Assembly: GCA_965237525.1 (NCBI GenBank)
Contig: CBDEFO010000003.1
Coordinates: 55,468-119,467, forward strand
Direction of reading: 5' to 3'
DNA length: 64,000 nucleotides
Origin: Candidatus Latescibacterota bacterium
GTDB taxonomy: Bacteria > Latescibacterota > CBDEFO01
Below the pieces are notes generated by a model. The model saw only the letters and a program-made list of their open reading frames with translations, searched no databases and was not told the origin of the DNA. A program made the position numbers and the translations under genes. Of this stretch, positions 4,041 to 54,936 are shown piece by piece (the first letter of the stretch is position 1; every line of letters begins with the position of its first letter).

Positions 4041-4852
4041 CCGCGGCTAACAGCTCGTTGATAGCTGATGTGTCCTCTGCCTTGCTTACGCGGCGGAGCC
4101 ACCGCTCGTACAGAGTTGTGACGTCATATGCCTTGCCTACTTAGCTAGACTATAGTTGGACTTCTGTGCTTGAATGGGATCCACCCTGTGGCAGCAGAGA
4201 TGTTTGAGGGCAGCGTCTCAATAGGTATCAGGTAAGGACTTAGATGTGCGGGATTGAATCCTTGGCCTCTCCGCCACCGACATCAGGACCTCCTGCGAAA
4301 GCTCTTACTTTTGGGCACAGTTTTGAGACAACGCTTTCAAACCGTTGAGACGTGAGAACCTCTGTGTGTAAGAAATCTATTTTAACTATGTTAGGTAAGG
4401 TAATCTTAGCAAAGCTGTTTCTACTAGTTCGTATACATTTATGCGCTTTTCGATGGTTTTCCAAACGATTTGGGAACTGTGTGGGCAATGTATTAGGTAT
4501 CTTGTCAGATCTCATCTGGTTTTTCATGCCTGAAAAAGATAGAGATTTGCCTTTGAGAAGTCAAGCTAAAATTTGTTCTTCCTCCTCAAAGTCCACCAAG
4601 TCTCTCCGAGCAAGTACTCATTCAAGTTTACGCACAGACTTACATACTACCCCAGGTTGTTTAGTTGTTGTCGAAATCGAAGGGAGCGACAGTCCATATT
4701 AGGTTCTATCCGGTCATCATGTTTGGAGTGCGCGGCCGTTAGTTAGCGTTCAACGCACGGGGAATAGATGAGAGTCCAGTACAGACTACCTGCCAGGTTA
4801 AGTCCATCAGCAGGGCGAAGACGTTTTCTCGGATGTCTCTGATGAAAAAGTC

Positions 4853-5242
4853 TTGAAAGGGGCTCTGTACGCCTGGTCTGAGGTAGTTGCCAGGGGACTC
4901 AGGCGAAAGCGACTGACGTGTCGCACAGTCAGATTGAAGTTGCGCTGGCCCGATTTTTCGACCCTGAAGAGGCAAGCTACCATGAGAGATCCTACCGATC
5001 TGGATGAGGTGATCTATGCTGAAGTGGTTCGTCTCTTTGAACGATATTGGATTCCGGGACAGCCAGTGAGGTTGTTAGGCGTAGGTGTAAGAAACTTGAG
5101 TGGAGATACGCGTCAATTGAAGCTGTGGGATGAGGAGATAGAAAAGAAAGAGCGCTTGCAAGAAGCAGTCGACTCACTACGTAAGCGATTTGGGGAAAGG
5201 GCAGTTAGGTCATGTAGAGCAATGATGAGAGGAGACATTTGA
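4853..5242 (+). pseudogene. dinB: DNA polymerase IV (DinB) C-terminal little-finger fragment
   Basis: The 129-aa ORF reads CRTVRLKLRWPDFSTLKRQATM...PVRLLGVGVRNLSGDTRQLKLWD. This matches the DinB C-terminus pattern (GRTVTLK..DF...R...VRL.GV.VS.L...QL.LF). No catalytic palm/finger region lies upstream, and the frame is closed by stops. Confidence 0.6.
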
Positions 5243-5385
5243 CATCTGTCTATCTTCCTTGAATCATCGCTATACTAGGTTACTTCTATACTCGTTTGAG
5301 TCTCTGTCATTAGGGGTTTCGGCACTTCCGGCTAACCCAAAGCTATCCGACTATCCAAGCGCACCTTTTGAAACTCCTAAAAGCC

Positions 5386-6418
5386 CTAATCCCGCCAGTC
5401 GAAAATGACGCCCAACATGGACTTCTCTCTGCGGTAGGCCATCTCGTAGACCTGGGCCATCTCCGTATAGTGGAAGCGGTGAGTGATCAGGCGTTTGGGC
5501 TCCAGGCGACCCTCTTCCATCAGGGAGAGAATATAGGCACAGTCCCGATCCGCTGCGAAGCGGTCTTCCACCATAGTAGCGTATTGGGTGTCGTTCGGGT
5601 ATAAATAACCCGCTGATCCCGAGACAGCGATCAGTGAAATACCTTTGATATAGAAAAGATCCATAGCCAACGGATTAAAATCCAGCGGGGTCTCTCCGCG
5701 ACCGAGGAGGCTGACGATGGAAACGCGACCGTTTGGCCGCACGATCTGCAGGGCTGTACGGTAAGCAGGCCAGGGATTCGCAGTGAGGATAACCAGGTCG
5801 AGGCCCACGCCGTCAGTAAAGGTGTCCAGCTTTGCTTCGAGGTCAGGATCGTCGGACATGTAGGCGGCATGAGCACCCATCCGATCTGCCATTTCCAGGC
5901 GGATGGGGCTATTGCCAAGACTCACCACACGGGCTCCGAAGAGCGGGCCGAGAGCAACCGCACCCAGACCGAGCACACCCCAGACCGACGACCGCTACAT
6001 TTTCCCCCGGTTGGAAATGGGCTTTACGATAACAGAGGGAGCTGAGAGCGTAGAGGTGGGCAAAGACAGCATCCTCTGAATCCACGCCATCCGGGACTTT
6101 GACCATGCTGGCTGCCTGGTCGGTTATGTATTCGGATTGATGAGGCTGCCTGGTCACCACTCGATCTCCCACCTGAAAACGGGTGACCTGTTTGCCCACA
6201 TCCTTCACAATGCCCAGATTGCTGTCGCCGACCCATCTGGGGTAGTCGGGTGCGCCCGGGACCCTTTCGGCTCCTTCGTAGTTGCCGCGGTCGGTACCGA
6301 TTTTAAAAGCGGAAATCTGAGTCTTGATCCAGATTTCGTCTGGCTTCAGATTGTCAGTGTTCAGGGACTGCTCCTCAAGGCGAAGGTCTCTCGGACCGTG
6401 AAGAATAGCAATTTTCAT
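5386..6418 (-). pseudogene. Zn-dependent medium-chain alcohol dehydrogenase, single-base frameshift
   Basis: Track ORFs 5909-6451 and 5386-5976 are the N- and C-halves of one MDR dehydrogenase (MKIAILHG...GENVAVVGLG | VLGLGAVALGPLFGARVV...). They join at a C4/G4 run near 5978-5981, where one extra base shifts the frame. AAGGAG lies 7 nt before the ATG at 6418. Confidence 0.7.
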
Positions 6419-6467
6419 GGGGGATCTCCTTAGCCCGAATAATTCACACAAAAAGGCCGTGTATTAA

Positions 6468-7986
6468 AAGCCTTGTGAAATAGTTATGTCCCAGGCAGCG
6501 TCTGAAGCGCCGATTATGGGTCAAAGAGTAGCATATCGTATCGTTTTGCTGTGGAATAAGCAAAATAGTCTTATCAGAGTTCTGGTCAGCAAGGAACAGG
6601 AGCTGTTTGAAGAACAGGATGCACTGTCTTTGACAGACAGGGCACACATAGACGCTTTCCCCCTTCTTATGAAAGATACAAGCCTCTTGAGATTCTGTAC
6701 TGTTGCAACAAGATTCAACTGTTCATTCAGTGAGGCTGGTCCTCTGTAACGGGCTCGTCCCATACCGTATTGTTGCCTGGCTTCAGCAAAGATATGTTCA
6801 CTGCGTTTACGGAGTCTCCGGGAGAGTTTGTAGTCAGCTGTTAATGAGATAGACCGTGCATGATTTCTGGCTTTCGCCTCTCGCACTTTTCTATCCCGTT
6901 CGGCCTGAATATGTGCTGAATTTGTCTTGTTTTTCCATGTAGGAATCGGTTCAATCTTCTCATCGGCTCGCAGAGGAATATGGGGTATGATTCCCCGGTC
7001 AAGTACATCAGCGATAAAATTACCAGAACCGTAACCGGTATCGGCACTAAGTGTCTGAATGTCTTTGGGCATGGTCTATGTTTCAAGGTCATCTACCATC
7101 TTAAGGGCACTTTCGGGCTCTGCTGTCCCTGTCGCCTGCGTGCCCTGAGTCTCAAGGATTACTCTGCTTTTTGTGTCGATCAGATCATGGCCCATAAACG
7201 AGAGAAAAGCCCCTTTGCCCTTCGATTTGCTGTATAAGCGCGCGTCGGGGTCTGTAGTCGAACGGTGTGTTTGGTTCGTCCACTTTTCACCATGAAAGTC
7301 TTTATCCTGAGGATGCCCGGACCTACCCTTTGTCTTATCACCTTCAAAACCGATTCCCTTGAGATAATCATCAAGAGAAAAAGGGGGTTCTATCGGCTCA
7401 ATACTTTTCACTGAAGCATCAGCTTGTATCTGAGTGCCGTCGACACTAAGGTGTTTACCGCTCACAACACCGACATCTATGCAACACTGGACTACCTGAC
7501 GCATTATCCGTTCAAACAACCCACTGGATGCCCACTTGTGATTGCGAAGCTTGTTGATCGTGCTCCTATCCGGAACCGCATCATCAAATGTCTGATGACA
7601 AAACAACCGATATGCCGCATGCATCCCCACTTCCTGACAGAGCCGATTCTCACTCAAATTATACAGATAGCCAATAAGGATCATTCGAACAACTAATTCA
7701 GGATCAATACCGGGTCTGCCATTGTCAGGGCAATAACAATCTGATACAACGTCTCGTACAAATGAAAAATCAACTGCCTCATCAATCTGACGAAGGATAT
7801 GATCCTCGGGAACTAAATCCTCCATCTGAAAATAGTGAAACATCGGATTTGTCTGTTCCTGCTTTTGTGGGGTCATTGTTTCCTCCATGTATAATATTAT
7901 CAATAACATAATATAATACATCGGAGCTGCTTTATCAATGCTTGTTCTATACTACTTTCTGAATCTAAGGGTTTTTCACAAGGCTT
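6468..7986 (-). mobile_element. IS element copy 1 (1519 bp, IS1182/IS5-superfamily-like)
   Basis: Perfect 13-bp terminal inverted repeats AAGCCTTGTGAAA / TTTCACAAGGCTT. Flanked by a TTAA direct repeat (6464-6467 and 7987-7990). Same unit as 23418-24936, 32652-34170 and 37599-39117. Confidence 0.9.
6521..7921 (-). pseudogene. IS transposase with premature stop
   Basis: Same frame as the 466-aa transposase of the other copies. C at 7076 (G in the other copies) changes Tyr TAC to TAG (DDLET* then TMPKDIQ). This splits it into the 281-aa and 183-aa track ORFs. Confidence 0.85.
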
Positions 7987-8033
7987 TTAATTAAGGGATT
8001 GTATTATAGTTATGCCGTTTAACCACGTTCGGT

Positions 8034-11081: not shown

Positions 11082-12023
11082 TCACTCTGTCACCTGCTTG
11101 ACGAGTCGGAACTTCTGAATGCGGTTATTCCCCCAATCTGTTACGTAGACGTTGTCGTCTTTGTCTGTTGCCACATCTGTCGGACGTTCGAACTTTCCGT
11201 CGCCGTTCCCCTTCCTTCCCCACTGGAGAAGGAAGTGTCCATCGCTGCCAAAGACCTGGATGCGGTGATTGTAAAAATCCGCTACGTAGATCCTATCTTC
11301 TCCGTCTAAGCCTATACCGGTGGACACGTTGAACCTGCCTTCATCTGTTCCGTAACCTCCCCAGCTCGTAAGAAGTTGCCCTTCACGCGTGAACTTGACA
11401 ATCCTATGATTGTAGGCGTCAGCCACGTAGACAGTACCGTCAGAACCGACAGCTAGATCGGTGGGGTAATTAAATTGTCCGTCGCCTTCTCCGTGCTCTC
11501 CCCATTGACGGACGAATTCGCCATTTCTATCAAACTTTTCTATCCTGTAGTTGTAGAAATCAGCTACATAGATATTCCCCTGGCTGTCCACAGATACGCC
11601 CGCCGGGGCGTCAAAATAAGTGTCCTCCTCTTGCCGCCGGCCAATAGTCCCGATAGAACTCCCGGAGGGGTTGAAGACCTGTATCCTGTCGTTGAAATAT
11701 TCTGCTACATAGAGCTTACTATCCTTCATTTCAATATGCATGGGACGCGCAAGCTCTCCACGGGCATTGCCCTCTTTTCCCCATTCGGCTAGGAAATTGC
11801 CCAGTATGTCAAACTTTTGAATGCGATTGTTCCCACTATCGGAGACATAGACACTTCCGACATCGTCAACAGCGATCCCTATAGGGCCCTGGAACTGCCC
11901 TGGCATTTCTCCTTCTGTTCCCCATTTCTGGACGAAGACGAATTGCAGTTTGTCCTCTTTGGAACAGTAAAGATGGCCTGTCGAAAGGATCAATATTATC
12001 AGCGACAAGATTGGTTGTCTCAT
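11082..12023 (-). CDS. secreted NHL-repeat six-bladed beta-propeller protein
   Basis: 313-aa ORF with a signal-like N-terminus. It has six repeats of the NHL signature (YV.D..N.RIQ.F: YVSDSGNNRIQKF, YVAEYFNDRIQVF, YVADFYNYRIEKF, YVADAYNHRIVKF, YVADFYNHRIQVF, YVTDWGNNRIQKF). Confidence 0.85.
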   Translation of the reverse strand: MRQPILSLIILILSTGHLYCSKEDKLQFVFVQKWGTEGEMPGQFQGPIGIAVDDVGSVYVSDSGNNRIQKFDILGNFLAEWGKEGNARGELARPMHIEMKDSKLYVAEYFNDRIQVFNPSGSSIGTIGRRQEEDTYFDAPAGVSVDSQGNIYVADFYNYRIEKFDRNGEFVRQWGEHGEGDGQFNYPTDLAVGSDGTVYVADAYNHRIVKFTREGQLLTSWGGYGTDEGRFNVSTGIGLDGEDRIYVADFYNHRIQVFGSDGHFLLQWGRKGNGDGKFERPTDVATDKDDNVYVTDWGNNRIQKFRLVKQVTE

Positions 12024-12036
12024 ATTTTCCCTCTTG

Positions 12037-12315
12037 TCAAAGTATCCTCGGCAACCACATGACGATCACCAAGGCGGTGGAGACCCATACTACAAGCACG
12101 CTCAGTCTGTGCCCGTGCCGCTTTACGTACACCAGATAGTGCGCTCTTGCCAAAAGCAGGACAGACAGAGTAAGCAAGAAAGGATAAAACTTTATCGCAA
12201 GGAACCTTGCAGTAGCTACCCCTGCTAACCCGAGCAGGGCAAAGATCGCCGGGACTATTCAACACCAGGGCAGTGCCGCAAGAAGGGCCATCAGGCTCGA
12301 TGCCTTTGTCTTCAT
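12037..12315 (-). CDS. MerT/MerF-like three-TM metal-transport membrane protein with in-frame TGA (Cys-Sec candidate or nonsense mutation)
   Basis: Hand translation gives MKTKASSLMALLAALPWC[TGA]IVPAIFALLGLAGVATARFLAIKFYPFLLTLSVLLLARAHYLVYVKRHGHRLSVLVVWVSTALVIVMWLPRIL*. The TGA (12259-12261) stays in frame and occupies the second position of the MerT CC..P....LG..G motif. The gene sits 12 nt after the HMA gene and 13 nt before the NHL gene. Not in the ORF track. Confidence 0.55.
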
Positions 12316-12327
12316 TGTTCTAATACC

Positions 12328-12867
12328 TTACTTAGTAGCAGAGGACAACATCTTAAACTGTCCAATAGACAGGACATAAGGATGCCCCGCATGGCCTTCG
12401 ACTTTTTCCTTGGAGAGCGTGCCAGTTATCCGAAGGAGCTTGTCCTCGCCTTTGAGCGCCTCTTTGACCTTCTTCAACTGCTCGTTCTGAGCGATCAGAA
12501 AGACGTTCGCGTTCTTTGCAAACTTTAAAACTGTTCTGCCATTATGCTCGGATATACGGCCTTTAACCGTAATCGCGATGTCTCTTGGGGTAAAGCCGCC
12601 GTCCACCACAGCCTTCTTTACATCTTCGATGGAGAGGTTCTTTTTCTCCTTCACAGTCAGTTTGGCTACTCCCTGATCCACTTTGATCTCTAACTTCTCA
12701 ACCCCTTCTACTCTCTTGAGCTTCTTCTCCAAGCCGTAGGCGCAAAAAGGGCACGAAAGACCGTCCACCTTAACTGTAGCCTCTTCTATCTGAGCCGGAC
12801 TCTCCACAGGTACAGCCGACACAATAATAACTGAGAGCAACAAAGAAAGAATTCTTTTTATCGTCAT
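12328..12867 (-). CDS. periplasmic heavy-metal-associated (HMA, MerP/CopZ-like) domain protein
   Basis: Signal peptide, then VKVDGLSCPFCAYGLEKKLKRVEGV, the GMxCxxC-type HMA metal-binding loop. AGGAGG Shine-Dalgarno upstream. Confidence 0.85.
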   Translation of the reverse strand: MTIKRILSLLLSVIIVSAVPVESPAQIEEATVKVDGLSCPFCAYGLEKKLKRVEGVEKLEIKVDQGVAKLTVKEKKNLSIEDVKKAVVDGGFTPRDIAITVKGRISEHNGRTVLKFAKNANVFLIAQNEQLKKVKEALKGEDKLLRITGTLSKEKVEGHAGHPYVLSIGQFKMLSSATK

Positions 12868-12917
12868 CTTGAAACGACCTCCTTTTAACTTTACAGGTTA
12901 ATATTGAGACTTTAGGA

Positions 12918-13863
12918 CTAAAAGATCAGCCATCGAATCCCGCTTACAAAGGCAAAGTCCCTCCCAAGTTGGGTGCCGTTCAGGTCCTGGAGCAGGGGGA
13001 TCTGTATCGATGTATCGATGATTAATGTGCTCAGAGGGATGTATTGTATCCCGGGAGAGAGACAAAATGTGTCCGCCGGAGTCCTCGACTGTCTGTCCAC
13101 TTGCCTCGTTCCTCCGGTTGAACTGCCCGTTTGCCTCTAAATAAAGAGTGGCACAAGACGATGGATAGGTCTCATAGACCGAAGGATATATTCTGTATCC
13201 GACCGCAAGATCGTAATTTAAAGCATCTCCGAATCTGTATTCGTCCTCCTCCCTTTTGAATGTGTAGATGGCGTCTGTGTTGATCCCGAGTCTTCCTACG
13301 CTGTGGGTTAAGATAAGTCCGGCTGAGTAATCTATGGAGCCTGTTCCCAATTGTAGCCCTCTGGGTAGAGGTTCGCCCAACTCATCGATCTCGTCGTGGT
13401 CTCCGATGGGAAGTTTCAGTCCTCCCTTAAACGTAATTCTGGTCGTCTTTCGATGAGCGTCCCGTTGAAGGAGTTGATATTTGAATAAGAGAGAAAGATC
13501 CCCAAAGCCGCTGTCAGACAGAGTGCGTCTTATCCCGCCCTGAACGAGACTCATCTCCTTATCCAGATACGGGATCGCTGCGGCGACTACCATTCTGTTT
13601 GGAATCAATTCGTAGGGAATTATAATAGGAACAGCCACAACTTGTACCTCACGGTCCAAAGGATCAGAGACTTTCGTACTACCCTTTAAGAGCTTCGATT
13701 TCTTTGTCGTTTTAACGAACGTCCTGAGCGCAGCACCCTGGAGGCCGACCACGAACGCTGTCTCAGTGTTGATCGGTGGCCCCTGAGCAAATGTCCCATT
13801 TGGATAAACCATATGAAGAACAACAGAGCACATAACAGATAACAAAACGATGTATCTTCTCAT
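12918..13863 (-). pseudogene. outer-membrane beta-barrel protein (MetA/phenol-degradation-type transporter family), single-base frameshift
   Basis: Track ORF 12898-13905 reads SDSGFGDLSLLFKYQLL and GTGSIDYSAGL, typical of this OMP family. Near 13050-13072 the conserved C-terminus continues in the frame of track ORF 12918-13100 (LSPGIQYIPL...QDLNGTQL...GIRWLIF*, terminal Phe). Likely start is MRRYIVLL at 13863, with AGGAAGGAGG upstream. Confidence 0.65.
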
Positions 13864-13909
13864 AGACACCTCCTTCCTAAGATTACTCCTAAGACCCTCT
13901 GACATTTCG

Positions 13910-14206
13910 TTATCTTGCGAACTTATAGATGATGTCCATCAATTGGTCGTATATTCTATCAGCCTCTTGGCTGTCTTGCGACCTGATGGAATTGGTGACA
14001 CAATTTTCCAGGTAGTTTCTCATCATAATCTTTCCCACCTGCTTTAGACCCTCCTCTGCCGCTGCTATTTGGGTCAGTACCTCCACGCAAGGGCGCTCCT
14101 TTTCTATCATGCCCTGTAATCCTCTCATCTGGCCTTCAATAGATTTAAGGCGTCTGACTGTCTGGTCCTTGCGATCTTGTGAGATTAGCTTGATTTCTAC
14201 GATCAT
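13910..14206 (-). CDS. csoR: CsoR/RcnR/FrmR-family metal-sensing transcriptional repressor
   Basis: 98 aa. RLKSIEGQMRGLQGMIEKERPCVEVLTQIAAAEEGLKQVGKIMMRNYLENC is the DUF156 helical-bundle text, with the conserved Cys (PC...) and C-terminal Cys. It is the first gene of the minus-strand metal operon. Confidence 0.85.
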   Translation of the reverse strand: MIVEIKLISQDRKDQTVRRLKSIEGQMRGLQGMIEKERPCVEVLTQIAAAEEGLKQVGKIMMRNYLENCVTNSIRSQDSQEADRIYDQLMDIIYKFAR

Positions 14207-22418: not shown

Positions 22419-22838
22419 ATAAAATGCTAACTGACAGCCGACTGGGAGACGAAATTGTTACTTGCTGCCTTGGAAAAGCTTCCGCTTTCGACAAGATCAC
22501 AGAAGATCTTCAGACTCTCTGGAAGCATCTTTAGGTGCGAATTCCAATATGAAATGTACAGTGCCGTCATATTTTCATAATGAAATATTTCTATTGCATT
22601 GCGCATCTACAAGCGCGGTATAACTCGATATTCAGGCGATCACTATAAGTAAACTAAAAGGCTGTAACTCTATGTTATTACACTATTTACTCTGACGAGA
22701 TATGAGGACTTTAATATGACCTTTTACGATTAGAGGTTGCTGTTCAACTGTTGGCACAAATGTTGCACTAATACTATTATGAACGGCACGAAACACAGAC
22801 AATTCAAACTTTAAATCATATAAGGGAGGTGAAAGACC

Positions 22839-22934
22839 GTGAAATTACTAATGCTGATAGAAGGTATAAGTCTGATTGTGGCAGTAGCAGCGTTTGAGAT
22901 GTATGCCTACAACAGCCTCGCTGCCCTGTTCTAA
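22839..22934 (+). CDS. 31-aa hydrophobic peptide, array copy 1 (MKLLMLIEGISLIVAVAAFEMYAYNSLAALF)
   Basis: GTG start 7 nt after GGGAGGTG, TAA stop. The ORF is identical in copies 1-3. It is below the track's size cutoff. Confidence 0.55.
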   Translation: MKLLMLIEGISLIVAVAAFEMYAYNSLAALF

Positions 22935-23024
22935 CCCATCAGGGTTGTAGATTGCTGAAATATTATTGAGCGGCACGAAACACAGACAATTCAACTTTAA
23001 ATCATATAAGAGAGGTGAAAGACC

Positions 23025-23120
23025 GTGAAATTACTAATGCTGATAGAAGGTATAAGTCTGATTGTGGCAGTAGCAGCGTTTGAGATGTATGCCTACAACA
23101 GCCTCGCTGCCCTGTTCTAA
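23025..23120 (+). CDS. 31-aa hydrophobic peptide, array copy 2
   Basis: 96 nt identical to copy 1. The SD is AGAGGTG, 7 nt before the GTG. Confidence 0.55.
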   Translation: MKLLMLIEGISLIVAVAAFEMYAYNSLAALF

Positions 23121-23210
23121 CCCATCAGGGTTGTAGATTGCTGAAATATTATTGAGCGGCACGAAACACAGACAATTCAACTTTAAATCATATAAGGGAG
23201 GTGAAAGACC

Positions 23211-23306
23211 GTGAAATTACTAATGCTGATAGAAGGTATAAGTCTGATTGTGGCAGTAGCAGCGTTTGAGATGTATGCCTACAACAGCCTCGCTGCCCTG
23301 TTCTAA
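23211..23306 (+). CDS. 31-aa hydrophobic peptide, array copy 3
   Basis: 96 nt identical to copy 1. The SD is GGGAGGTG, 7 nt before the GTG. Confidence 0.55.
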   Translation: MKLLMLIEGISLIVAVAAFEMYAYNSLAALF

Positions 23307-23417
23307 CCGATCAGGGTTGTAGATTGCCCAATATTATTGAGCGGCACGAAACACAGACAATTCAACTTTAAATCGTATAAGAGAGGTGAAAGACTGTGAC
23401 AACTGTGACATTACTAA

Positions 23418-24936
23418 AAGCCTTGTGAAATAGTTATGTCCCAGGCAGCGTCTGAAGCGCCGATTATGGGTCAAAGAGTAGCATATCGTATCGTTTTGCT
23501 GTGGAATAAGCAAAATAGTCTTATCAGAGTTCTGGTCAGCAAGGAACAGGAGCTGTTTGAAGAACAGGATGCACTGTCTTTGACAGACAGGGCACACATA
23601 GACGCTTTCCCCCTTCTTATGAAAGATACAAGCCTCTTGAGATTCTGTACTGTTGCAACAAGATTCAACTGTTCATTCAGTGAGGCTGGTCCTCTATAAC
23701 GGGCTCGTCCCATACCGTGTTGTTGCCTGGCTTCAGCAAAGATATGTTCACTGCGTTTACGGAGTCTCCGGGAGAGTTTGTAGTCAGCTGTTAATGAGAT
23801 AGACCGTGCATGATTTCTGGCTTTCGCCTCTCGCACTTTTCTATCCCGTTCGGCCTGAATATGTGCTGAATTTGTCTTGTTTTTCCATGTAGGAATCGGT
23901 TCAATCTTCTCATCGGCTCGCAGAGGAATATGGGGTATGATTCCCCGGTCAAGTACATCAGCGATAAAATTACCAGAACCGTAACCGGTATCGGCACTAA
24001 GTGTCTGAATGTCTTTGGGCATGGTGTATGTTTCAAGGTCATCTACCATCTTAAGGGCACTTTCGGGCTCTGCTGTCCCTGTCGCCTGCGTGCCCTGAGT
24101 CTCAAGGATTACTCTGCTTTTTGTGTCGATCAGATCATGGCCCATAAACGAGAGAAAAGCCCCTTTGCCCTTCGATTTGCTGTATAAGCGCGCGTCGGGG
24201 TCTGTAGTCGAACGGTGTGTTTGGTTCGTCCACTTTTCACCATGAAAGTCTTTATCCTGAGGATGCCCGGACCTACCCTTTGTCTTATCACCTTCAAAAC
24301 CGATTCCCTTGAGATAATCATCAAGAGAAACAGGGGGTTCTATCGGCTCAATACTTTTCACTGAAGCATCAGCTTGTATCTGAGTGCCGTCGACACTAAG
24401 GTGTTTACCGCTCACAAGACCGACATCTATGCAACACTGGACTACCTGACGCATTATCCGTTCAAACAACCCACTGGATGCCCACTTGTGATTGCGAAGC
24501 TTGTTGATCGTGCTCCTATCCGGAACCGCATCATCAAATGTCTGATGACAAAACAACCGATATGCCGCATGCATCCCCACTTCCTGACAGAGCCGATTCT
24601 CACTCAAATTATACAGATAGCCAATAAGGATCATTCGAACAACTAATTCAGGATCAATACCGGGTCTGCCATTGTCAGGGCAATAACAATCTGATACAAC
24701 GTCTCGTACAAATGAAAAATCAACTGCCTCATCAATCTGACGAAGGATATGATCCTCGGGAACTAAATCCTCCATCTGAAAATAGTGAAACATCGGATTT
24801 GTCTGTTCCTGCTTTTGTGGGGTCATTGTTTCCTCCATGTATAATATTATCAATAACATAATATAATACATCGGAGCTGCTTTATCAATGCTTGTTCTAT
24901 ACTACTTTCTGAATCTAAGGGTTTTTCACAAGGCTT
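23418..24936 (-). mobile_element. IS element copy 2 (1519 bp)
   Basis: Same inverted repeats as copy 1, with CTAA direct repeats at 23414-23417 and 24937-24940. Confidence 0.9.
23471..24871 (-). CDS. IS1182/IS5-superfamily DDE transposase (466 aa, intact)
   Basis: The N-terminus (NPMFHYFQMEDLVPEDHILRQID) matches the DUF772-type transposase N-domain. The C-half carries LSADTGYGS and SEHIFAEARQQHGMGRARYRG, a DDE/YREK-like region. Confidence 0.9.
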   Translation of the reverse strand: MYYIMLLIILYMEETMTPQKQEQTNPMFHYFQMEDLVPEDHILRQIDEAVDFSFVRDVVSDCYCPDNGRPGIDPELVVRMILIGYLYNLSENRLCQEVGMHAAYRLFCHQTFDDAVPDRSTINKLRNHKWASSGLFERIMRQVVQCCIDVGLVSGKHLSVDGTQIQADASVKSIEPIEPPVSLDDYLKGIGFEGDKTKGRSGHPQDKDFHGEKWTNQTHRSTTDPDARLYSKSKGKGAFLSFMGHDLIDTKSRVILETQGTQATGTAEPESALKMVDDLETYTMPKDIQTLSADTGYGSGNFIADVLDRGIIPHIPLRADEKIEPIPTWKNKTNSAHIQAERDRKVREAKARNHARSISLTADYKLSRRLRKRSEHIFAEARQQHGMGRARYRGPASLNEQLNLVATVQNLKRLVSFIRRGKASMCALSVKDSASCSSNSSCSLLTRTLIRLFCLFHSKTIRYATL

Positions 24937-25099
24937 CTAATGCTGATAGAAGGTATAAGTCTGATTGTGTGTACATCGTGTATGGTGTATGTCAACAGCA
25001 ACATCGTTGCCCTGTTTTAATCCCTCAGGGATTCAAAGAGGATTTTCAGTAGGTGGAAAGCTTCGGCCTTTAGGTCGGAGTTTTTACATTTGGTGTTAC

Positions 25100-32561: not shown

Positions 32562-32651
32562 AAGCTTTAAAGCCGCACCTTGTGAATATGCCGATTAAGT
32601 CTGATCCACCCACTTCAGCTAGCCCAATTTTCCCTATATACCTTTCTTTAA

Positions 32652-34170
32652 AAGCCTTGTGAAAAACCCTTAGATTCAGAAAATAGTATAAAACAAGCAT
32701 TGATAAAGCAGCTCCGATGTATTATATTATGTTATTGATAATATTATACATGGAGGAAACAATGACCCCACAAAAGCAGGAACAGACAAATCCGATGTTT
32801 CACTATTTTCAGATGGAGGATTTAGTTCCCGAGGATCATATCCTTCGTCAGATTGATGAGGCAGTTGATTTTTCATTTATACGAGACGTTGTATCAGATT
32901 GTTATTGCCCTGACAATGGCAGACCCGGTATTGATCCTGAATTAGTTGTTCGAATGATCCTTATTGGCTATCTGTATAATTTGAGTGAGAATCGGCTCTG
33001 TCAGGAAGTGGGGATGCATGCGGCATATCGGTTGTTTTGTCATCAGACATTTGATGATGCGGTTCCGGATAGGAGCACGATCAACAAGCTTCGCAATCAC
33101 AAGTGGGCATCCAGTGGGTTGTTTGAACGGATAATGCGTCAGGTAGTCCAGTGTTGCATAGATGTCGGTCTTGTGAGCGGTAAACACCTTAGTGTCGACG
33201 GCACTCAGATACAAGCTGATGCTTCAGTGAAAAGTATTGAGCCGATAGAACCCCCTGTTTCTCTTGATGATTATCTCAAGGGAATCGGTTTTGAAGGTGA
33301 TAAGACAAAGGGTAGGTCCGGGCATCCTCAGGATAAAGACTTTCATGGTGAAAAGTGGACGAACCAAACACACCGTTCGACTACAGACCCCGACGCGCGC
33401 TTATACAGCAAATCGAAGGGCAAAGGGGCTTTTCTCTCGTTTATGGGCCATGATCTGATCGACACAAAAAGCAGAGTAATCCTTGAGACTCAGGGCACGC
33501 AGGCGACAGGGACAGCAGAGCCCGAAAGTGCCCTTAAGATGGTAGATGACCTTGAAACATACACCATGCCCAAAGACATTCAGACACTTAGTGCCGATAC
33601 CGGTTACGGTTCTGGTAATTTTATCGCTGATGTACTTGACCGGGGAATCATACCCCATATTCCTCTGCGAGCCGATGAGAAGATTGAACCGATTCCTACA
33701 TGGAAAAACAAGACAAATTCAGCACATATTCAGGCCGAACGGGATAGAAAAGTGCGAGAGGCGAAAGCCAGAAATCATGCACGGTCTATCTCATTAACAG
33801 CTGACTACAAACTCTCCCGGAGACTCCGTAAACGCAGTGAACATATCTTTGCTGAAGCCAGGCAACAACACGGTATGGGACGAGCCCGTTACAGAGGACC
33901 AGCCTCACTGAATGAACAGTTGAATCTTGTTGCAACAGTACAGAATCTCAAGAGGCTTGTATCTTTCATAAGAAGGGGGAAAGCGTCTATGTGTGCCCTG
34001 TCTGTCAAAGACAGTGCATCCTGTTCTTCAAACAGCTCCTGTTCCTTGCTGACCAGAACTCTGATAAGACTATTTTGCTTATTCCACAGCAAAACGATAC
34101 GATATGCTACTCTTTGACCCATAATCGGCGCTTCAGACGCTGCCTGGGACATAACTATTTCACAAGGCTT
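32652..34170 (+). mobile_element. IS element copy 3 (1519 bp)
   Basis: Same inverted repeats, with TTAA direct repeats at 32648-32651 and 34171-34174. Confidence 0.9.
32717..34117 (+). CDS. IS1182/IS5-superfamily DDE transposase (466 aa, intact)
   Basis: Differs from copy 2 at one residue (FSFIRDVV versus FSFVRDVV). Confidence 0.9.
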   Translation: MYYIMLLIILYMEETMTPQKQEQTNPMFHYFQMEDLVPEDHILRQIDEAVDFSFIRDVVSDCYCPDNGRPGIDPELVVRMILIGYLYNLSENRLCQEVGMHAAYRLFCHQTFDDAVPDRSTINKLRNHKWASSGLFERIMRQVVQCCIDVGLVSGKHLSVDGTQIQADASVKSIEPIEPPVSLDDYLKGIGFEGDKTKGRSGHPQDKDFHGEKWTNQTHRSTTDPDARLYSKSKGKGAFLSFMGHDLIDTKSRVILETQGTQATGTAEPESALKMVDDLETYTMPKDIQTLSADTGYGSGNFIADVLDRGIIPHIPLRADEKIEPIPTWKNKTNSAHIQAERDRKVREAKARNHARSISLTADYKLSRRLRKRSEHIFAEARQQHGMGRARYRGPASLNEQLNLVATVQNLKRLVSFIRRGKASMCALSVKDSASCSSNSSCSLLTRTLIRLFCLFHSKTIRYATL

Positions 34171-34174
34171 TTAA

Positions 34175-37230: not shown

Positions 37231-37620
37231 TTGAATATGTCCCGCAAGAGTCATAAGAACCTTGTATTATCGCTTACTGCCTCTGTGATCTTACACTCCA
37301 TAGTGTTTTTTCTCGCCTATATATTGAGAGGTGAAAGGGAGGATCAGGTATATAAGGTGCAGTTCAGACCTTATGGGCCTGCTCCTGCAAAGCCTCTATA
37401 TCCTGCGGAAAAACCTTCAATCCCCAAAGTGGCTGTTGAGATGCTCCCTAAAAAGGGAAAACCCGAACTGCCCCCGGAGGGATTTGCGGCTATTGATGAT
37501 ACTAGCAGATGGAAGGATGAACTCCGAGAAAGCGCCTTGAGTGCCGTCGAGGCTGAGGGACTTGTGGAGACCGCAGGCTCAAAAAGAGGGATCATTAAAA
37601 GCCTTGTGAAAAACCCTTAG
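37231..37620 (+). pseudogene. TonB-like protein N-terminal part, 3' end replaced by IS copy 4
   Basis: N-terminal TM segment (LVLSLTASVILHSIVFFLAYIL) and a Pro/Lys-rich linker (RPYGPAPAKPLYPAEKPSIPK...KGKPELPPEGF). There is no C-terminal TonB domain. The last residues (KSLVKNP*) are read from the IS inverted repeat. Confidence 0.45.
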
Positions 37621-39117
37621 ATTCAGAAAGTAGTATAGAACAAGCATTGATAAAGCAGCTCCGATGTATTATATTATGTTATTGATAATATTATACATGG
37701 AGGAAACAATGACCCCACAAAAGCAGGAACAGACAAATCCGATGTTTCACTATTTTCAGATGGAGGATTTAGTTCCCGAGGATCATATCCTTCGTCAGAT
37801 TGATGAGGCAGTTGATTTTTCATTTATACGAGACGTTGTATCAGATTGTTATTGCCCTGACAATGGCAGACCCGGTATTGATCCTGAATTAGTTGTTCGA
37901 ATGATCCTTATTGGCTATCTGTATAATTTGAGTGAGAATCGGCTCTGTCAGGAAGTGGGGATGCATGCGGCATATCGGTTGTTTTGTCATCAGACATTTG
38001 ATGATGCGGTTCCGGATAGGAGCACGATCAACAAGCTTCGCAATCACAAGTGGGCATCCAGTGGGTTGTTTGAACGGATAATGCGTCAGGTAGTCCAGTG
38101 TTGCATAGATGTCGGTGTTGTGAGCGGTAAACACCTTAGTGTCGACGGCACTCAGATACAAGCTGATGCTTCAGTGAAAAGTATTGAGCCGATAGAACCC
38201 CCTGTTTCTCTTGATGATTATCTCAAGGGAATCGGTTTTGAAGGTGATAAGACAAAGGGTAGGTCCGGGCATCCTCAGGATAAAGACTTTCATGGTGAAA
38301 AGTGGACGAACCAAACACACCGTTCGACTACAGACCCCGACGCGCGCTTATACAGCAAATCGAAGGGCAAAGGGGCTTTTCTCTCGTTTATGGGCCATGA
38401 TCTGATCGACACAAAAAGCAGAGTAATCCTTGAGACTCAGGGCACGCAGGCGACAGGGACAGCAGAGCCCGAAAGTGCCCTTAAGATGGTAGATGACCTT
38501 GAAACATACACCATGCCCAAAGACATTCAGACACTTAGTGCCGATACCGGTTACGGTTCTGGTAATTTTATCGCTGATGTACTTGACCGGGGAATCATAC
38601 CCCATATTCCTCTGCGAGCCGATGAGAAGATTGAACCGATTCCTACATGGAAAAACAAGACAAATCCAGCACATATTCAGGCCGAACGGGATAGAAAAGT
38701 GCGAGAGGCGAAAGCCAGAAATCATGCACGGTCTATCTCATTAACAGCTGACTACAAACTCTCCCGGAGACTCCCTAAACGCAGTGAACATATCTTTGCT
38801 GAAGCCAGGCAACAACACGGTATGGGACGAGCCCGTTATAGAGGACCAGCCTCACTGAATGAACAGTTGAATCTTGTTGCAACAGTACAGAATCTCAAGA
38901 GGCTTGTATCTTTCATAAGAAGGGGGAAAGCGTCTATGTGTGCCCTGTCTGTCAAAGACAGTGCACCCTGTTCTTCAAACAGCTCCTATTCCTTGCTGAC
39001 CAGAACTCTGATAAGACTATTTTGCTTATTCCACAGCAAAACGATACGATATGCTACTCTTTGACCCATAATCGGCGCTTCAGACGCTGCCTGGGACATA
39101 ACTATTTCACAAGGCTT
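37599..39117 (+). mobile_element. IS element copy 4 (1519 bp), flanks do not match
   Basis: Same inverted repeats. The left flank is TTAA (37595-37598) but the right flank is CTAA (39118-39121). Confidence 0.9.
37664..39064 (+). CDS. IS1182/IS5-superfamily DDE transposase (466 aa, intact, most diverged copy)
   Basis: Several substitutions relative to copies 2 and 3 (NKTNPAH, RRLPKRSEH, DSAPCSS, SSYSLL). Confidence 0.9.
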   Translation: MYYIMLLIILYMEETMTPQKQEQTNPMFHYFQMEDLVPEDHILRQIDEAVDFSFIRDVVSDCYCPDNGRPGIDPELVVRMILIGYLYNLSENRLCQEVGMHAAYRLFCHQTFDDAVPDRSTINKLRNHKWASSGLFERIMRQVVQCCIDVGVVSGKHLSVDGTQIQADASVKSIEPIEPPVSLDDYLKGIGFEGDKTKGRSGHPQDKDFHGEKWTNQTHRSTTDPDARLYSKSKGKGAFLSFMGHDLIDTKSRVILETQGTQATGTAEPESALKMVDDLETYTMPKDIQTLSADTGYGSGNFIADVLDRGIIPHIPLRADEKIEPIPTWKNKTNPAHIQAERDRKVREAKARNHARSISLTADYKLSRRLPKRSEHIFAEARQQHGMGRARYRGPASLNEQLNLVATVQNLKRLVSFIRRGKASMCALSVKDSAPCSSNSSYSLLTRTLIRLFCLFHSKTIRYATL

Positions 39118-40382: not shown

Positions 40383-40404
40383 CGATTGAATAGTTGTTCA
40401 ATTG
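40383..40404. promoter_or_regulatory. candidate ArsR/SmtB operator (10-2-10 imperfect inverted repeat)
   Basis: CGATTGAATA-GT-TGTTCAATTG has 8/10 complementary arms and resembles the TGAACA/TGTTCA-containing 12-2-12 boxes of SmtB/CzrA/CadC. It lies just upstream of the ATPase start. Confidence 0.35.
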
Positions 40405-40422
40405 ATTTTGTATGGAGATATT

Positions 40423-42792
40423 ATGATGTCTCTATCAGATGTCTGTGATTTGCGCCTTAAGATTAAGGGCATGGACTGTCCCGCTTGCTCCTCCAAGATA
40501 GAGCGTGGTGTTTTGTCTTTGGATGGCGCCGAGTCCGCCAGAGTCGATTTTGTGAAGGGAAGTCTAGAGGCGAAAATAGATGAGGCAAAAATCGATATGG
40601 GCAAGATCGCCTTTCAGATCCAAAAGTTGGGTTACGATGTGATTAAGGAGGGCGATTTTTCACAGAGTGGTAGCACCACAACTTCCGTATTTAAGGTGGA
40701 GGATATGGACTGTGCAGATGAGGCCTTTCTGATAGAGAGAAAATTGAAGTCTTTGGAAGGTGTAGAGGAATCTAGCTTCAATTTTGTGGCTCGGACGATG
40801 ACGGTGAAGCACAAAATAGAGGATGAGGACATAGAAAGGGCTTTAGCTGAAATAGGTTTCCAGGCGACAGTTCAAAGTGATAAGGAAGATGAAGGAGCGT
40901 TTTGGGAGAAGCATAAAAAGACGGTTTTAACAATCGGATCTGGGATATTTACCCTTTTGGGGTTTGCGCTTTGGTACTCCGGATTCGAAGAAAACATAGT
41001 TCTTCCGATATATGTCCTGGCTATGACTTTGGGAGGACTGCAAATTGCAAAGAAGGGATTGGCTGCGGTGAGGAATCTTTCATTGGATATGAACTTCCTT
41101 ATGACAATTGCCGTGATAGGAGCCGCTGCATTAGGGGAATGGCTTGAGGGTGCGATGATTATATTCTTGTTCTCTTTAGCTCAGCTGCTTGAGAGTCTCA
41201 GCATGGACAAAGCAAGAAATGCCATCGGTTCGCTGATGGACCTGTCGCCGGCTGAGGCTACGGTCAAGAGAAACGGCGAACAGATGAAGCTTGCGGTTGA
41301 GGACGTGCAGATAGAAGATGTAATGGTGCTAAAGCCCGGTGAGAAGATAGCCCTGGATGGAGTTGTTCTGTCTGGAACTTCGGCTGTGAATCAGGCACCG
41401 ATGACGGGGGAGTCGATCCCTGTCGAGAAGTCAAAGGGACATGAAGTCTATGCGGGGACCATAAATGAGGGAGGATCCCTTGATGTTAAGGTGACTAAGC
41501 TATCGAAGGATACTACCCTAAAAAGGATTATTCATATGGTGGAGGAGGCGCAGAGCAGAAGGGCTCCATCTCAGAACTTCGTGGATAAGTTCACAAAGTA
41601 TTACACTCCGACTGTGATAGCGGGGGCCGTAGGAGTGGCAACAGTGCCTTGGCTCTTTTTCGAAGCACCTTTTGGCCACTGGTTTTACAGGGCCTTGGTG
41701 CTTCTGGTTATATCGTGTCCGTGTGCCTTGGTGATCTCGACTCCGGTGTCAATAGTCTCAGGCATTATGAGCGCGGCAAAAAGAGGCGTGCTGATCAAGG
41801 GAGGGCTACATTTAGAGAACACAGGAACAATAAGGGCTTTAGCCTTTGACAAGACAGGTACGCTGACCGAAGGAAGACCGTACGTAGACGAGATCATTTC
41901 GATAAATTCTTTCTCCCACGAGGAGATAATAGAGATCGCGGCTTCTGTGGAGTCGAGGTCTGAGCATCACCTAGCACAGGCTATCGTAGAGAAGGGTAAA
42001 GAAATAGGCATAGACATTAAGGAGGGCGAAGATCTCCAGATCATATCGGGTATGGGGGTTCAAGCCGAAGTTAAGGGATGGGATAAAAAGGGGGGATTCT
42101 TCATTGGAAATCACCGTCTCGTAGAGGAAAAAGGACTATGCAACCCCGAGGTAGAGGCTCATTTGAATCGGTTGGAATCGGAGGGTAAGACGGCTGTGAT
42201 TTTGGGAGATGAGGAGGGAGTGATAGGGATTATGTCTATTTCTGATAGGGTCAGAAAGGGGATTAAGGAGGTTATAGAGGAACTCCACAAGAGCGGAATC
42301 CAAAAGATTATCATGCTAACTGGAGATAACAAAGGGACCGCTGATGCCATCGCCAAAGAATTGGGGATAGATGAATATAAAGCTGAGCTTCTGCCGCAGG
42401 ACAAGGTTGATGCAGTTGAACAGCTAAGAGTTAAGTACAGTAATGTGGCCATGGTCGGGGACGGCGTGAACGACGCTCCTGCTTTAGCGGCCTCGACCGT
42501 AGGGATAGCTATGGGAGCAATAGGGACAGATACGGCCTTAGAGACGGCTGATATAGCGCTCATGTCGGACGATCTTTCCAAACTGCCTTACACTGTGGAA
42601 CTTTCAAGGAAGACAGTCACCACTATAAAGGAGAACATATTCCTTTCGATTCTGATCAAAGCCCTCTTCTTGGCTCTTGCAATAGGCGGGATGGCGACCT
42701 TGTGGATGGCTGTAGCTGCGGATATGGGTGCGTCGCTCTTGGTGATCTTCAACGGCTTGAAAGTGCTTAGGTTTCGGGCTAAACAAGAGTAG
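40423..42792 (+). CDS. P1B-type heavy-metal (Cd/Zn/Pb-type) translocating ATPase
   Basis: N-terminal HMA domain GMDCPACSSKIE plus a second, degenerate HMA. CPC in VISCPCALVISTP, DKTGTLT, and GDGVNDAPAL. The track ORF begins at 40402, but the ATG at 40423 follows GGAG. Confidence 0.9.
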   Translation: MMSLSDVCDLRLKIKGMDCPACSSKIERGVLSLDGAESARVDFVKGSLEAKIDEAKIDMGKIAFQIQKLGYDVIKEGDFSQSGSTTTSVFKVEDMDCADEAFLIERKLKSLEGVEESSFNFVARTMTVKHKIEDEDIERALAEIGFQATVQSDKEDEGAFWEKHKKTVLTIGSGIFTLLGFALWYSGFEENIVLPIYVLAMTLGGLQIAKKGLAAVRNLSLDMNFLMTIAVIGAAALGEWLEGAMIIFLFSLAQLLESLSMDKARNAIGSLMDLSPAEATVKRNGEQMKLAVEDVQIEDVMVLKPGEKIALDGVVLSGTSAVNQAPMTGESIPVEKSKGHEVYAGTINEGGSLDVKVTKLSKDTTLKRIIHMVEEAQSRRAPSQNFVDKFTKYYTPTVIAGAVGVATVPWLFFEAPFGHWFYRALVLLVISCPCALVISTPVSIVSGIMSAAKRGVLIKGGLHLENTGTIRALAFDKTGTLTEGRPYVDEIISINSFSHEEIIEIAASVESRSEHHLAQAIVEKGKEIGIDIKEGEDLQIISGMGVQAEVKGWDKKGGFFIGNHRLVEEKGLCNPEVEAHLNRLESEGKTAVILGDEEGVIGIMSISDRVRKGIKEVIEELHKSGIQKIIMLTGDNKGTADAIAKELGIDEYKAELLPQDKVDAVEQLRVKYSNVAMVGDGVNDAPALAASTVGIAMGAIGTDTALETADIALMSDDLSKLPYTVELSRKTVTTIKENIFLSILIKALFLALAIGGMATLWMAVAADMGASLLVIFNGLKVLRFRAKQE

Positions 42793-52783: not shown

Positions 52784-54936
52784 ACCAAAACACAAAACTC
52801 AAAGTTGCATTCCCATCTATCTTTAGGACCTATCCCTATCTTCCAATTGGGAAACACAACGGAGCTTTGATATGTCCTTTCAAAGCCTTTTTCCGATTGC
52901 GAAACTGTCTCCACAGGAAAACGCCATACGTCTGTCTTTCTATCGAATTTTAACGACACAGTCAAATTCCGATCATCGTCGTCTAAATCTATCCTATCTA
53001 TTCCTTCAACAGCTCCTGTGCTCCCTAAACTGCAATCCTTTAAGTCCACTTGTAAATTTCGACTACGGATCTCGTAGTGCCTTGCTGGTCCCTCTCCTGA
53101 TAGAAATGAAAAATTAAACTCCACGCCGAACCAGAGTTCTACGTCCGCATCCAGAGGGTTTTCAATAACGTAGCGCACATCCACTTGGGCGTTAGATTTA
53201 GACATCTTAAGCTTCTTGGACACCGTCAAAGGTTGTTTCTTTTGTCCGTATATCCCCCCATCTCTTCGCATTGATACCTCTTTGCCACCATTTTGATCCT
53301 TAATATCGTACAAATAAGGCTGATTCACAAAATCTCCCAACTCCCGGTACTCGCACGCCTTGAATCCTTCAAGTGAGGTCCCTTCTCCCAGGAAATGATC
53401 CAGAAAGCACACTCTGTTGTACCAGTCATATTTGAGATAACGCTCGATTCCCTCCTCCGTCACCTTAGCCAGGTCGTGAATACTGCCAGGCCCTTCATAC
53501 TGTTTGCCCTCCACTTCTACCTCATACCTGCCCTCTATGATATCCCTGTGATAGCTTTCAGGCCTCCTTGACAGAGTGTTCACCAGATTGAAATCTCTCG
53601 GCTTGTAGTCCAATTCAAAGAGTGACCCGCCGTAGGAAGGATCAAGATACAGATTCAGCAGGCCGTTGCTCAAGATAATCTCATCTTTTCCGTCCCCGTC
53701 AAAATCCAACTCCTCGGACTCAATCCAATCTCCTGAACCTTTTTCCTCTTCATCGGAGATCCTTTCGGCCCTTATAAGGTGTCTGTAAACGGTGTCCCTT
53801 AGATGAGGCAGATAGAGACCTCCGAACACGCCGTGCCAGTAAGCACAGTTACACTGTCCTTTCCATAGCTCGCTTATAGCTTCTCCCTCCCCTTTTAAAT
53901 CGACTTTCCTGCTCACAGAGAGCATCTTTTTGTGCATATTGTTGCTCTCATCATACTTGGCCAGGAACCCCCTCCAGAATCCGCCCTTTAAGAACACCTT
54001 ATACTTTTCTATCTCTCCTTTGTCCTTCAAATCCTCCACAATATCCTCAAGCTCCGCTCCCTTTTGAGATGGGAGAGTCCATTGGCTCATCTCAAAATAA
54101 GAGGCTGTCGGGAGGTATGCCCTGCCTGAAGCCGGGTGCTTATCGGTGAAGTCCGAAAAGGTAGTGGTATTAATCCAATCGCTGTTCTCCTCCAGAGCAC
54201 AGAAGAACTTCTCCAGCCACTTCTCCTTATAGACCCAATCGTAAGTCTTGGGCCATAGGCCGAACTTCTCTCCGTCGTCAACGATCACCGATAACCTGTC
54301 TCGATTCAGAGAGGTCGGATCGTTCTCAGTGCCCATGTCTCGTAGATAATCGATTGTAAATTCTGGTAACTTGAACGGAATTCCGTATCTCAGCCTTTCG
54401 CTTATCGGAAAGATAGAGAGCACATACCCCTGTTCTTCAGTATTGAAATATCCGTAGAGTTCCTCTTCGTTGAATCCGGCGCTTTTGAAGTGATAATCGT
54501 CGAGGGCTACATACTTTATCCCCGCCTCAGCCAGCGGCTTGGGTAGGTGAGGCTCCCATACCCTTTCAGGCAGCCACATCCCCCTTGCCTCGTACCCGAA
54601 TCTATCCTTGATGTAATCTGTCAACATCTCTATTTGACCTATCTTATCCCTGTCGGGGATAATAGGCATAATAGGCTCGTAGAATCCCCCGGTCATCATC
54701 TCGACCTGTCCTCTATCTACTAACTCTTTCAGCATAGCGATAAACTCAGGTCTCTTTTGCTCTATCCATTCCAGAAGACAGCCGGAATAGTGCAGAACCA
54801 TCTTTATAGAGGGGTGCCTTGAAAGGATCTGGATAAAGGGCAGATACGACTTTTTGTAGGCCATTTGAAAGACAGAGTCAAAATTCCCCACTGGTTGATG
54901 GCAGTGTATCCCGAATATAAGATTTATCCTCTTCAT
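52774..54936 (-). CDS. GH57-family alpha-glucan enzyme (4-alpha-glucanotransferase/amylase type with C-terminal beta-domains)
   Basis: GIHCHQPVGNF, GGFYEPI, WLPERVWEP and ALDDYHF are the GH57 conserved regions. The start MKRINLIF at 54936 overlaps the upstream stop (ATGA). Confidence 0.85.
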   Translation of the reverse strand: MKRINLIFGIHCHQPVGNFDSVFQMAYKKSYLPFIQILSRHPSIKMVLHYSGCLLEWIEQKRPEFIAMLKELVDRGQVEMMTGGFYEPIMPIIPDRDKIGQIEMLTDYIKDRFGYEARGMWLPERVWEPHLPKPLAEAGIKYVALDDYHFKSAGFNEEELYGYFNTEEQGYVLSIFPISERLRYGIPFKLPEFTIDYLRDMGTENDPTSLNRDRLSVIVDDGEKFGLWPKTYDWVYKEKWLEKFFCALEENSDWINTTTFSDFTDKHPASGRAYLPTASYFEMSQWTLPSQKGAELEDIVEDLKDKGEIEKYKVFLKGGFWRGFLAKYDESNNMHKKMLSVSRKVDLKGEGEAISELWKGQCNCAYWHGVFGGLYLPHLRDTVYRHLIRAERISDEEEKGSGDWIESEELDFDGDGKDEIILSNGLLNLYLDPSYGGSLFELDYKPRDFNLVNTLSRRPESYHRDIIEGRYEVEVEGKQYEGPGSIHDLAKVTEEGIERYLKYDWYNRVCFLDHFLGEGTSLEGFKACEYRELGDFVNQPYLYDIKDQNGGKEVSMRRDGGIYGQKKQPLTVSKKLKMSKSNAQVDVRYVIENPLDADVELWFGVEFNFSFLSGEGPARHYEIRSRNLQVDLKDCSLGSTGAVEGIDRIDLDDDDRNLTVSLKFDRKTDVWRFPVETVSQSEKGFERTYQSSVVFPNWKIGIGPKDRWECNFEFCVLVLD

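Follow-up and report, generated by a model that had tools for sequence, protein, structure and literature searches.

A MerT-like membrane protein gene in a Candidatus Latescibacterota bacterium with an in-frame TGA as probable selenocysteine codon

The stretch of DNA under study, called the window in the following, comprises 64,000 nucleotides. On its minus strand lies a string of genes for an outer-membrane beta-barrel protein (OMP), an HMA-domain protein, and an NHL-repeat beta-propeller, headed by a repressor gene (Table 1). A preliminary description of this DNA had claimed an unlisted frame of 92 codons with three helices between the HMA gene and the NHL gene. Translation of the minus strand from 12315 to 12037 bears this out, the helices being taken from a low-confidence model of a Cys-bearing homologue. 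The translation reads MKTKASSLMALLAALPWC, a stop, IVPAIFALLGLAGVATARFLAIKFYPFLLTLSVLLLARAHYLVYVKRHGHRLSVLVVWVSTALVIVMWLPRIL, and a second stop, the frame thus starting with MKTKASSLMALLAALPWC-TGA-IVPAIF and finishing with LPRIL and its terminator. It begins 12 nt past the stop of the HMA gene and ends 13 nt short of the NHL gene. The motif around codon 19 is LPWC-TGA-IVPA, and the clean continuation of 73 sense codons which had been noted after this TGA, up to the frame's own stop TGA, is found on translation as well.

Table 1. Position of the MerT-like gene, its internal TGA, the hairpin, and the adjacent genes in the window
Feature	Coordinates	Strand	Remarks
MerT-like gene, 92 codons	12037-12315	minus	three predicted transmembrane helices; predicted Cys18-Sec19 pair in helix 1; own TGA stop 12037-12039
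In-frame TGA, codon 19, probable Sec codon	12259-12261	minus	corresponds to second Cys of the MerT-type Cys-Cys pair
Candidate SECIS hairpin	12220-12239	minus	7-bp stem CCCUGCU/AGCAGGG, loop CGGGUU
HMA-domain protein (MerP/CopZ-like, CPFC motif)	12328-12867	minus	Pfam HMA 3e-7; NCBIfam MerP/CopZ models under cutoff
NHL-repeat beta-propeller	11082-12023	minus	Pfam NHL 1e-48; N-terminal hydrophobic segment; directly downstream
Outer-membrane beta-barrel, Phenol_MetA_deg type (OMP)	12898-13905	minus	Pfam 4e-11; frameshifted; conserved neighbour
CsoR/RcnR-family metal-responsive repressor	13910-14206	minus	Pfam Trns_repr_metal 4e-23; NCBIfam RicR 3.5e-17, under cutoff; heads gene string

A close relative of this region is a locus on the complete and independently assembled Ca. 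Latescibacterota chromosome OZ252149.1 (L001). Its nucleotide identity with the window is about 94% over the region, and the two do not have the same set of genes. The HMA protein has a signal-peptide-like N-terminus, and its gene, located directly upstream of the MerT-like gene, adjoins it in most related loci. As had been described before, the OMP gene is frameshifted; comparison with the intact 315 amino acids orthologue of L001 (2792-3739) traced this to a 2-bp deletion in a CT run. The CsoR-family repressor is 96% identical between window and L001. By inspection its ligand pattern in the window is Cys40/Tyr65/Cys69, the canonical pattern being Cys-His-Cys, and as a tyrosine takes the place of the histidine ligand of Cu(I)-CsoR the effector of this repressor may not be copper. 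Between the HMA and the MerT-like genes, where the window has only positions 12316-12327, L001 carries two extra genes (4335-5907) for a second MetA-type barrel of 272 amino acids and a double-HMA protein of 257 amino acids. The first 15 or so codons of this extra barrel are similar to those with which the MerT-like gene begins, and the joint may thus have undergone recombination or duplication.

Several other features of the window were recorded. Genes for a zinc alcohol dehydrogenase (5386-6451) and a GH57 glycoside hydrolase (54933-57126) are split like that of the MetA-type barrel, which may represent real decay or indel errors of the assembly; gene decay or indel errors thus do occur in this DNA. 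Four copies of an IS of about 1.53 kb (6462-7991, 23412-24941, 32648-34173, and 37593-39117) encode a DUF772 plus DDE_Tnp_1 transposase of 466 amino acids and share 99.5-99.7% mutual identity, the ORF of the first copy being split into 6521-7072 and 7076-7921. A 186-bp tandem repeat (22775-23399; 3.4 copies, 97% match) lies in a low-GC stretch, directly adjoining one of the IS copies. A P1B ATPase of the CopA type, with two HMA domains at its N-terminus, is encoded at 40402-42792, 28 kb away from the genes of Table 1, and CopA-like ATPases adjoin the MerT-like gene in L011 and L101.

The relationship to MerT was examined with alignments and profile models. The window protein is 34% identical over its full length to the Bacillus-type MerT of a merR-merT-merP-merA plasmid operon, and the end-to-end alignment sets the Cys-Cys pair of MerT opposite Cys18 and TGA19, which confirms that the TGA occupies the position of the second MerT cysteine. 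When a cysteine was placed at codon 19 the NCBIfam model merT_RC607 matched with E=1e-13, under the model cutoff, and the score of the window protein with NF033560 was 51.3 bits compared to a cutoff of 130. Pfam MerT (PF02411) gave no match to the window protein at E<=1. For the nearest Cys homologue, AlphaFold gave a model of low confidence (pLDDT 67, pTM 0.32) with helices extending over residues 3-39, 45-65, and 71-93. A profile search of the PDB yielded chance matches to membrane proteins only and no relative of solved structure. All four database homologues found by a word-indexed search and all 15 Cys forms examined as DNA have PWCC at the site in question, and the signature of the family can be written as PW-C-C/U-I-x-P ... 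R-A-H-Y, with an invariant Pro22 and with Gly29 and Gly32 kept in close homologues. In the alignment of orthologues the Cys forms thus carry PWCC, and L001, the metagenomic forms L136 and L141, and others keep the TGA.

These conserved residues bear on the possibility that translation truly ends at the TGA and re-initiates further on to yield a shorter product. Gene callers do predict N-truncated proteins in many relatives. The next in-frame start past the TGA in the window, however, is the TTG of codon 47; a fragment begun there would have 46 residues and lack helices 1 and 2, and the codons in between, including those for Pro22, Gly29, and Gly32, are conserved as protein. Re-initiation is therefore highly improbable.

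The locus L001 has the same TGA as the window. Codons 20-92 differ between the two by five synonymous and two nonsynonymous changes and by no indels, corresponding to a dS of 0.089, a dN of 0.013, and a dN/dS of 0.14, the neighbouring genes ranging from 0.09 to 0.37. With only seven substitutions the departure from neutrality after the TGA reaches a binomial p of about 0.02. The sequence 3' of the TGA is under purifying selection. Of the two readings offered in the preliminary description, a selenocysteine candidate or a fresh nonsense mutation, the second is excluded, as the TGA is also found in L001, L136, L141, and at least seven more lineages and dN/dS downstream of it is 0.14; the first is supported. 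An error of base calling or assembly at codon 19 might be suspected in view of several apparent indel lesions elsewhere in the window. The same TGA is present, however, in the independent assembly L001 and in two sequencing runs (L136 and L137), and the lesions elsewhere that could be resolved are indels, not substitutions, which leaves such an error a practically negligible probability.

The distribution of the TGA was followed in metagenomes, where at least nine further TGA forms were found, eight of them with intact continuation. A DNA-pattern scan with L-[PS]-W-C-TGA-I-x-P-[AG] gave at least 120 matches. Among the matches listed five are true members of the family (L018, L036, L078, L101, and L071) and most others occurred by chance; the run after the TGA is mostly about 17 codons in chance matches as compared to 74-88 codons in L018, L036, L078, and L101. 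In L071 (minus strand) an in-frame TAG also stands about 38 codons past the TGA at the conserved arginine of G-R-A-H-Y, the frame otherwise continuing. This sequence may be decaying, a pseudogene, or affected by a sequencing error, and it follows that not all TGA forms need be functional. The search pattern also matches a highly conserved human-gut sequence, FPWC-TGA-IHPAVPRL, with a stop 17 codons on (L016, L017, L019, and about 50 other human-gut contigs). This sequence does not belong to the family and probably represents a conserved gene read in another frame.

A profile search over 1.84 billion cluster representatives gave 186 matches, and the best 150 of these were classified. They comprise 55 full-length PWCC proteins and about 51 gene calls which begin 1-30 residues after the Cys-Cys position. 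Where such late-starting gene calls were examined as DNA, a TGA was present in four out of five. P0032 reads VPWC-TGA-VAPAIFALLGLAG (L136 and L137, two independent sequencing runs) and P0026 reads LPWC-TGA-VAPAVF (L141). P0049, with LPWT-TGA-MAPAIW, is a Thr-Sec form (L138, about 1140-1175, on the ENA contig ERZ27297344), and P0078 has a double TGA, EW-TGA-TGA-LLP (L139). P0083 (L140) was not counted as a TGA form because its upstream frame is ambiguous. In L139 (positions 140-150 of a Logan SRR16971108 contig) the sequence GAA TGG TGA TGA TTG CTG CCG has adjacent TGAs at the Cys-Cys site, followed by a strong hairpin (66 nt with -37.6 kcal/mol). As judged from this one short contig, two Sec may be encoded there in tandem. 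Neighbour-joining placed the window and L001 in a cluster with L141 and L136, all of them TGA-bearing, and the remaining TGA clades were scattered among Cys clades. The nearest TGA-bearing relatives of the window, L136 and L141, are about 50% identical to it. Because the TGA is spread over interleaved clades it represents a recurrent and conserved state of the family. Every TGA form found is either missing from the protein databases or truncated just past the TGA.

A GC hairpin 19 nt past the UGA had been pointed out in the preliminary description as a potential SECIS element. Bacterial SECIS models of the bSECISearch type require an apical loop about 16-37 nt 3' of the UGA and a G early in the loop. 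The hairpin of the window spans 20 nt and does start 19 nt past the UGA, its loop beginning at 26 nt. In L001 the stem is unchanged and the loop has one change, in L136 the stem is retained, U-A being replaced by U-G, and in the distant TGA form L138 the entire 20 nt are identical base for base. Comparison of the codons which encode the same residue in the window and L138 revealed identity in all six inside the hairpin and in 5 of 21 elsewhere (hypergeometric p of about 0.002). The Cys form L142 has the same FALLGLAG residues encoded by other codons, and the hairpin is absent.

As regards folding energy, the window hairpin by itself is not statistically unusual. The 75-nt window region has a z of 0.09 against shuffled sequences. 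For the central 42 nt, compared to synonymous recodings, z is -1.1, about 15% of the recodings folding equally well. The hairpin is thus present at the position claimed and is conserved, but it is short, and taken alone it folds no better than synonymous recodings do. For the family as a whole the comparison with synonymous recodings gave a mean z of -2.0 for TGA forms (n=10) and of -0.6 for Cys forms (n=14), a difference with p=0.005 in the Mann-Whitney test. In several TGA forms the hairpin is strong, 63 nt folding with -30 to -36 kcal/mol, and in the seven TGA forms folded the apical loop begins 21-28 nt past the UGA. According to our reading of the folds two compensatory pairs distinguish the stem of L036 from that of L078. 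RNAalifold placed a common element at the same columns of six TGA forms, with little covariation for the window-type stem, and a scan of the whole window with Rfam gathering thresholds gave no match. The authors of bioRxiv 10.1101/2022.07.06.499078 note a failure of the public SECIS prediction server they used to recognise genuine bacterial selenoproteins, so a weak prediction is not disqualifying.

With these data it can be asked if the gene is an old pseudogene, inactivated by a nonsense TGA before window and L001 diverged and no longer functional in either. Next to it the OMP gene is frameshifted, the genes for alcohol dehydrogenase, GH57, and one IS transposase are split in the window, the window hairpin is not statistically exceptional, and further stops are possible in TGA forms, as L071 demonstrates. 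On the other hand L136 and L141, about 50% identical to the window, and several further clades share this TGA, the dN/dS is 0.14 with 73 codons free of indels and stops, and the nucleotides of the hairpin are kept at synonymous sites. In addition the OMP gene, broken in the window, is intact in the TGA-bearing L001, so the TGA does not track that decay. An old pseudogene is thus very unlikely.

TGA is an ordinary stop in the window, terminating 14 of its 37 genes, and among these an in-frame TGA was seen only in the gene discussed here. A reassigned genetic code was therefore rejected as the explanation. Neither selA, selB, and selD nor a tRNA-Sec was detected within the 64 kb by ARAGORN and by a Pfam scan of 40 window ORFs; ARAGORN reported no tRNA of any kind in the window. 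The Pfam scan showed no other selenoproteins among these ORFs, a scan for other TGA-interrupted frames across the window gave nothing convincing, and a literature search for Latescibacteria and selenocysteine gave nothing relevant.

The comparative data show translation of the UGA, not the identity of the inserted residue. The codon might hence be read or recoded with no selenium involved, by a Cys-charged tRNA-Sec-like tRNA with UCA anticodon or by near-cognate tRNA-Trp or tRNA-Cys, which would result in a Cys-Cys or a Cys-Trp product. A precedent for recoding of Sec to Cys exists, as natural recoding of this kind via SelB-dependent tRNAs has been reported from uncultured bacteria. Against this the site is that of a metal-ligand cysteine, the hairpins are typical of SelB-dependent decoding, the known MerT-like selenoproteins share the Cys-Sec motif, and no such tRNA was seen in the window. 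A selenium-free product is, altogether, quite unlikely.

Judged from sequence comparison, the TGA at codon 19 is with high probability a selenocysteine codon, and the gene would encode a 92-residue inner-membrane protein of the MerT type with three helices and with Cys18 and Sec19 in the first of them. SelB loaded with Sec-tRNA(Sec) would be recruited by the hairpin (12239-12220 in reading direction) and Sec would be inserted in place of termination. By homology to MerT and from the gene context the thiolate-selenolate pair may then accept from the CxxC motif of the HMA protein a soft metal ion, for example Hg(II), Cu(I), or Ag(I), and the metal could be passed on across the inner membrane in the direction suggested by the same homology. 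This scheme is modelled on the delivery of Hg(II) from MerP to MerT. Sec would offer a softer and fully ionised ligand with faster exchange. A hand-off of the MerP-to-MerT type to the thiolate-selenolate pair of helix 1 is, by analogy, the most likely function. Alternatively, the Cys-Sec pair may have a redox role and form a selenenylsulfide, as happens in thioredoxin reductase.

Selenocysteine as a metal ligand within a membrane transporter is rare, and such genes are overlooked by gene callers. Recognition of the family would correct dozens of gene models, and the few selenoproteins so far listed for metal handling would be joined by a transporter. The family would also provide a natural series of Cys and Sec variants of the same protein at the same site with which the part of selenium in soft-metal transfer might be probed.

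The gene context of the family gives further hints to its function. Genes for the MerT-like protein, the NHL propeller, the MetA-type barrel, and the periplasmic HMA protein form a recurrent cassette, an arrangement also seen around the TGA form L136. Loci of this cassette were found in Spirochaetia, Nitrospira, Desulfobacterota, Dadabacteria, Myxococcota, Binatia, Omnitrophota, and Gemmatimonadota. The NHL gene is a neighbour in 10 of 13 Cys-form genome loci (L002-L014) as well as in L136. The 15 Cys-form loci stand for 14 lineages, L004 and L005 being near-duplicates. In 12 of these 15 a full-length MerR gene with 31-47% identity to Bacillus MerR1 is located nearby, half of these twelve genes retaining all three Hg-ligand cysteines; a thirteenth locus, L003, has a MerR fragment at the contig edge. 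A MerA ending in the C-terminal SCCA motif is encoded at L014 and L010, the former also showing the active site CVNVGC. MerR and MerA beside the Cys forms argue that the family acts as the transporter of mer operons in those lineages. The cassette sits inside recognisable mer operons in many phyla (L002-L014 and L143), and within the library of papers searched none names both 'mer operon' and 'NHL repeat'.

The loci with a TGA which have usable flanks contain neither MerR nor MerA. In the 64-kb window no match to MerR or MerA was obtained; there, as in L001, a CsoR-family repressor is present instead. Close to the MerT-like gene of L101, a further TGA form, a CopA-type ATPase and an HMA-MerC fusion are encoded. 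As only two or three TGA lineages are informative the contrast of MerR/MerA with CsoR/CopA is a lead and not a result.

A broader picture can be drawn tentatively, and we consider it somewhat less probable than even. It comprises an unannotated MerT-like family spanning phyla, with about a third of its clusters in the Sec form and with Thr-Sec and possible Sec-Sec variants, which would be part of an undescribed envelope-spanning module of OMP, HMA, MerT-like, and NHL proteins. The Cys forms would be found under MerR/MerA of the mercury type, the Sec forms with enough flanking DNA together with genes of the CsoR/CopA type, which would point to a selenium-dependent route for a soft metal which is maybe not mercury. 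Within mer operons, the conserved association with an NHL protein and an outer-membrane barrel suggests that the handling of mercury or soft metals involves a component not described so far.

Among known systems the closest is the Bacillus RC607-type MerT (WP_031536987.1, on the Priestia flexa plasmid NZ_CP040365.1). Like the window protein it has about 95-100 residues and three helices, with the vicinal cysteine pair of helix 1 at the aligned position and a gene for an HMA (MerP-like) protein next door. The Cys-type relatives of the window protein resemble the RC607 mer context, many lying beside MerR-type regulators and two beside a MerA with a Cys-Cys tail. The window protein differs from RC607-type MerT in that it scores below the curated cutoffs and that Sec replaces the second cysteine. 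In addition, in contrast to the RC607-type operon, the window is devoid of merR and merA, and an NHL propeller and an outer-membrane barrel are the constant partners.

Selenoproteins with related modules have been described in two forms. A 'putative mercuric transport protein' selenoprotein with the PF02411 domain and the motif C/SxxU is exemplified by ABB16073.1 (PMC9312934, PMC13188914), and NCBIfam provides with NF045683 a model for a MerT/CopZ fusion-like heavy metal transport selenoprotein. These resemble the window in combining MerT-like and HMA modules for soft metals. In the window, however, the two modules are separate genes, and the predicted Sec is part of a membrane Cys-Cys pair and not of a CxxU motif. 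NF045683 had no match at E<=1 to the MerT-like protein of the window and matched L078 with E=0.011. The HMA protein of the window matched it in the C-terminal part only, with 36 bits compared to a cutoff of 375.

A small group of MerT-family selenoproteins with a Cys-Sec motif has also been described, for example WP_250634603.1 (bioRxiv 10.1101/2022.07.06.499078). These NCBI-curated proteins share the Cys-Sec dipeptide predicted for the window protein, a comparison made by description only. Members of the present family are named 'hypothetical protein' at NCBI, which suggests that the family lies outside the NCBI reference set of MerT selenoproteins, and none of them has a Pfam match; the family remains under the cutoff of all curated MerT models. 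MerT-like selenoproteins with Cys-Sec are thus already known and the window gene is probably another member, while the family it belongs to and its cassette of four genes, OMP, HMA, MerT-like, and NHL, appear to be undescribed.
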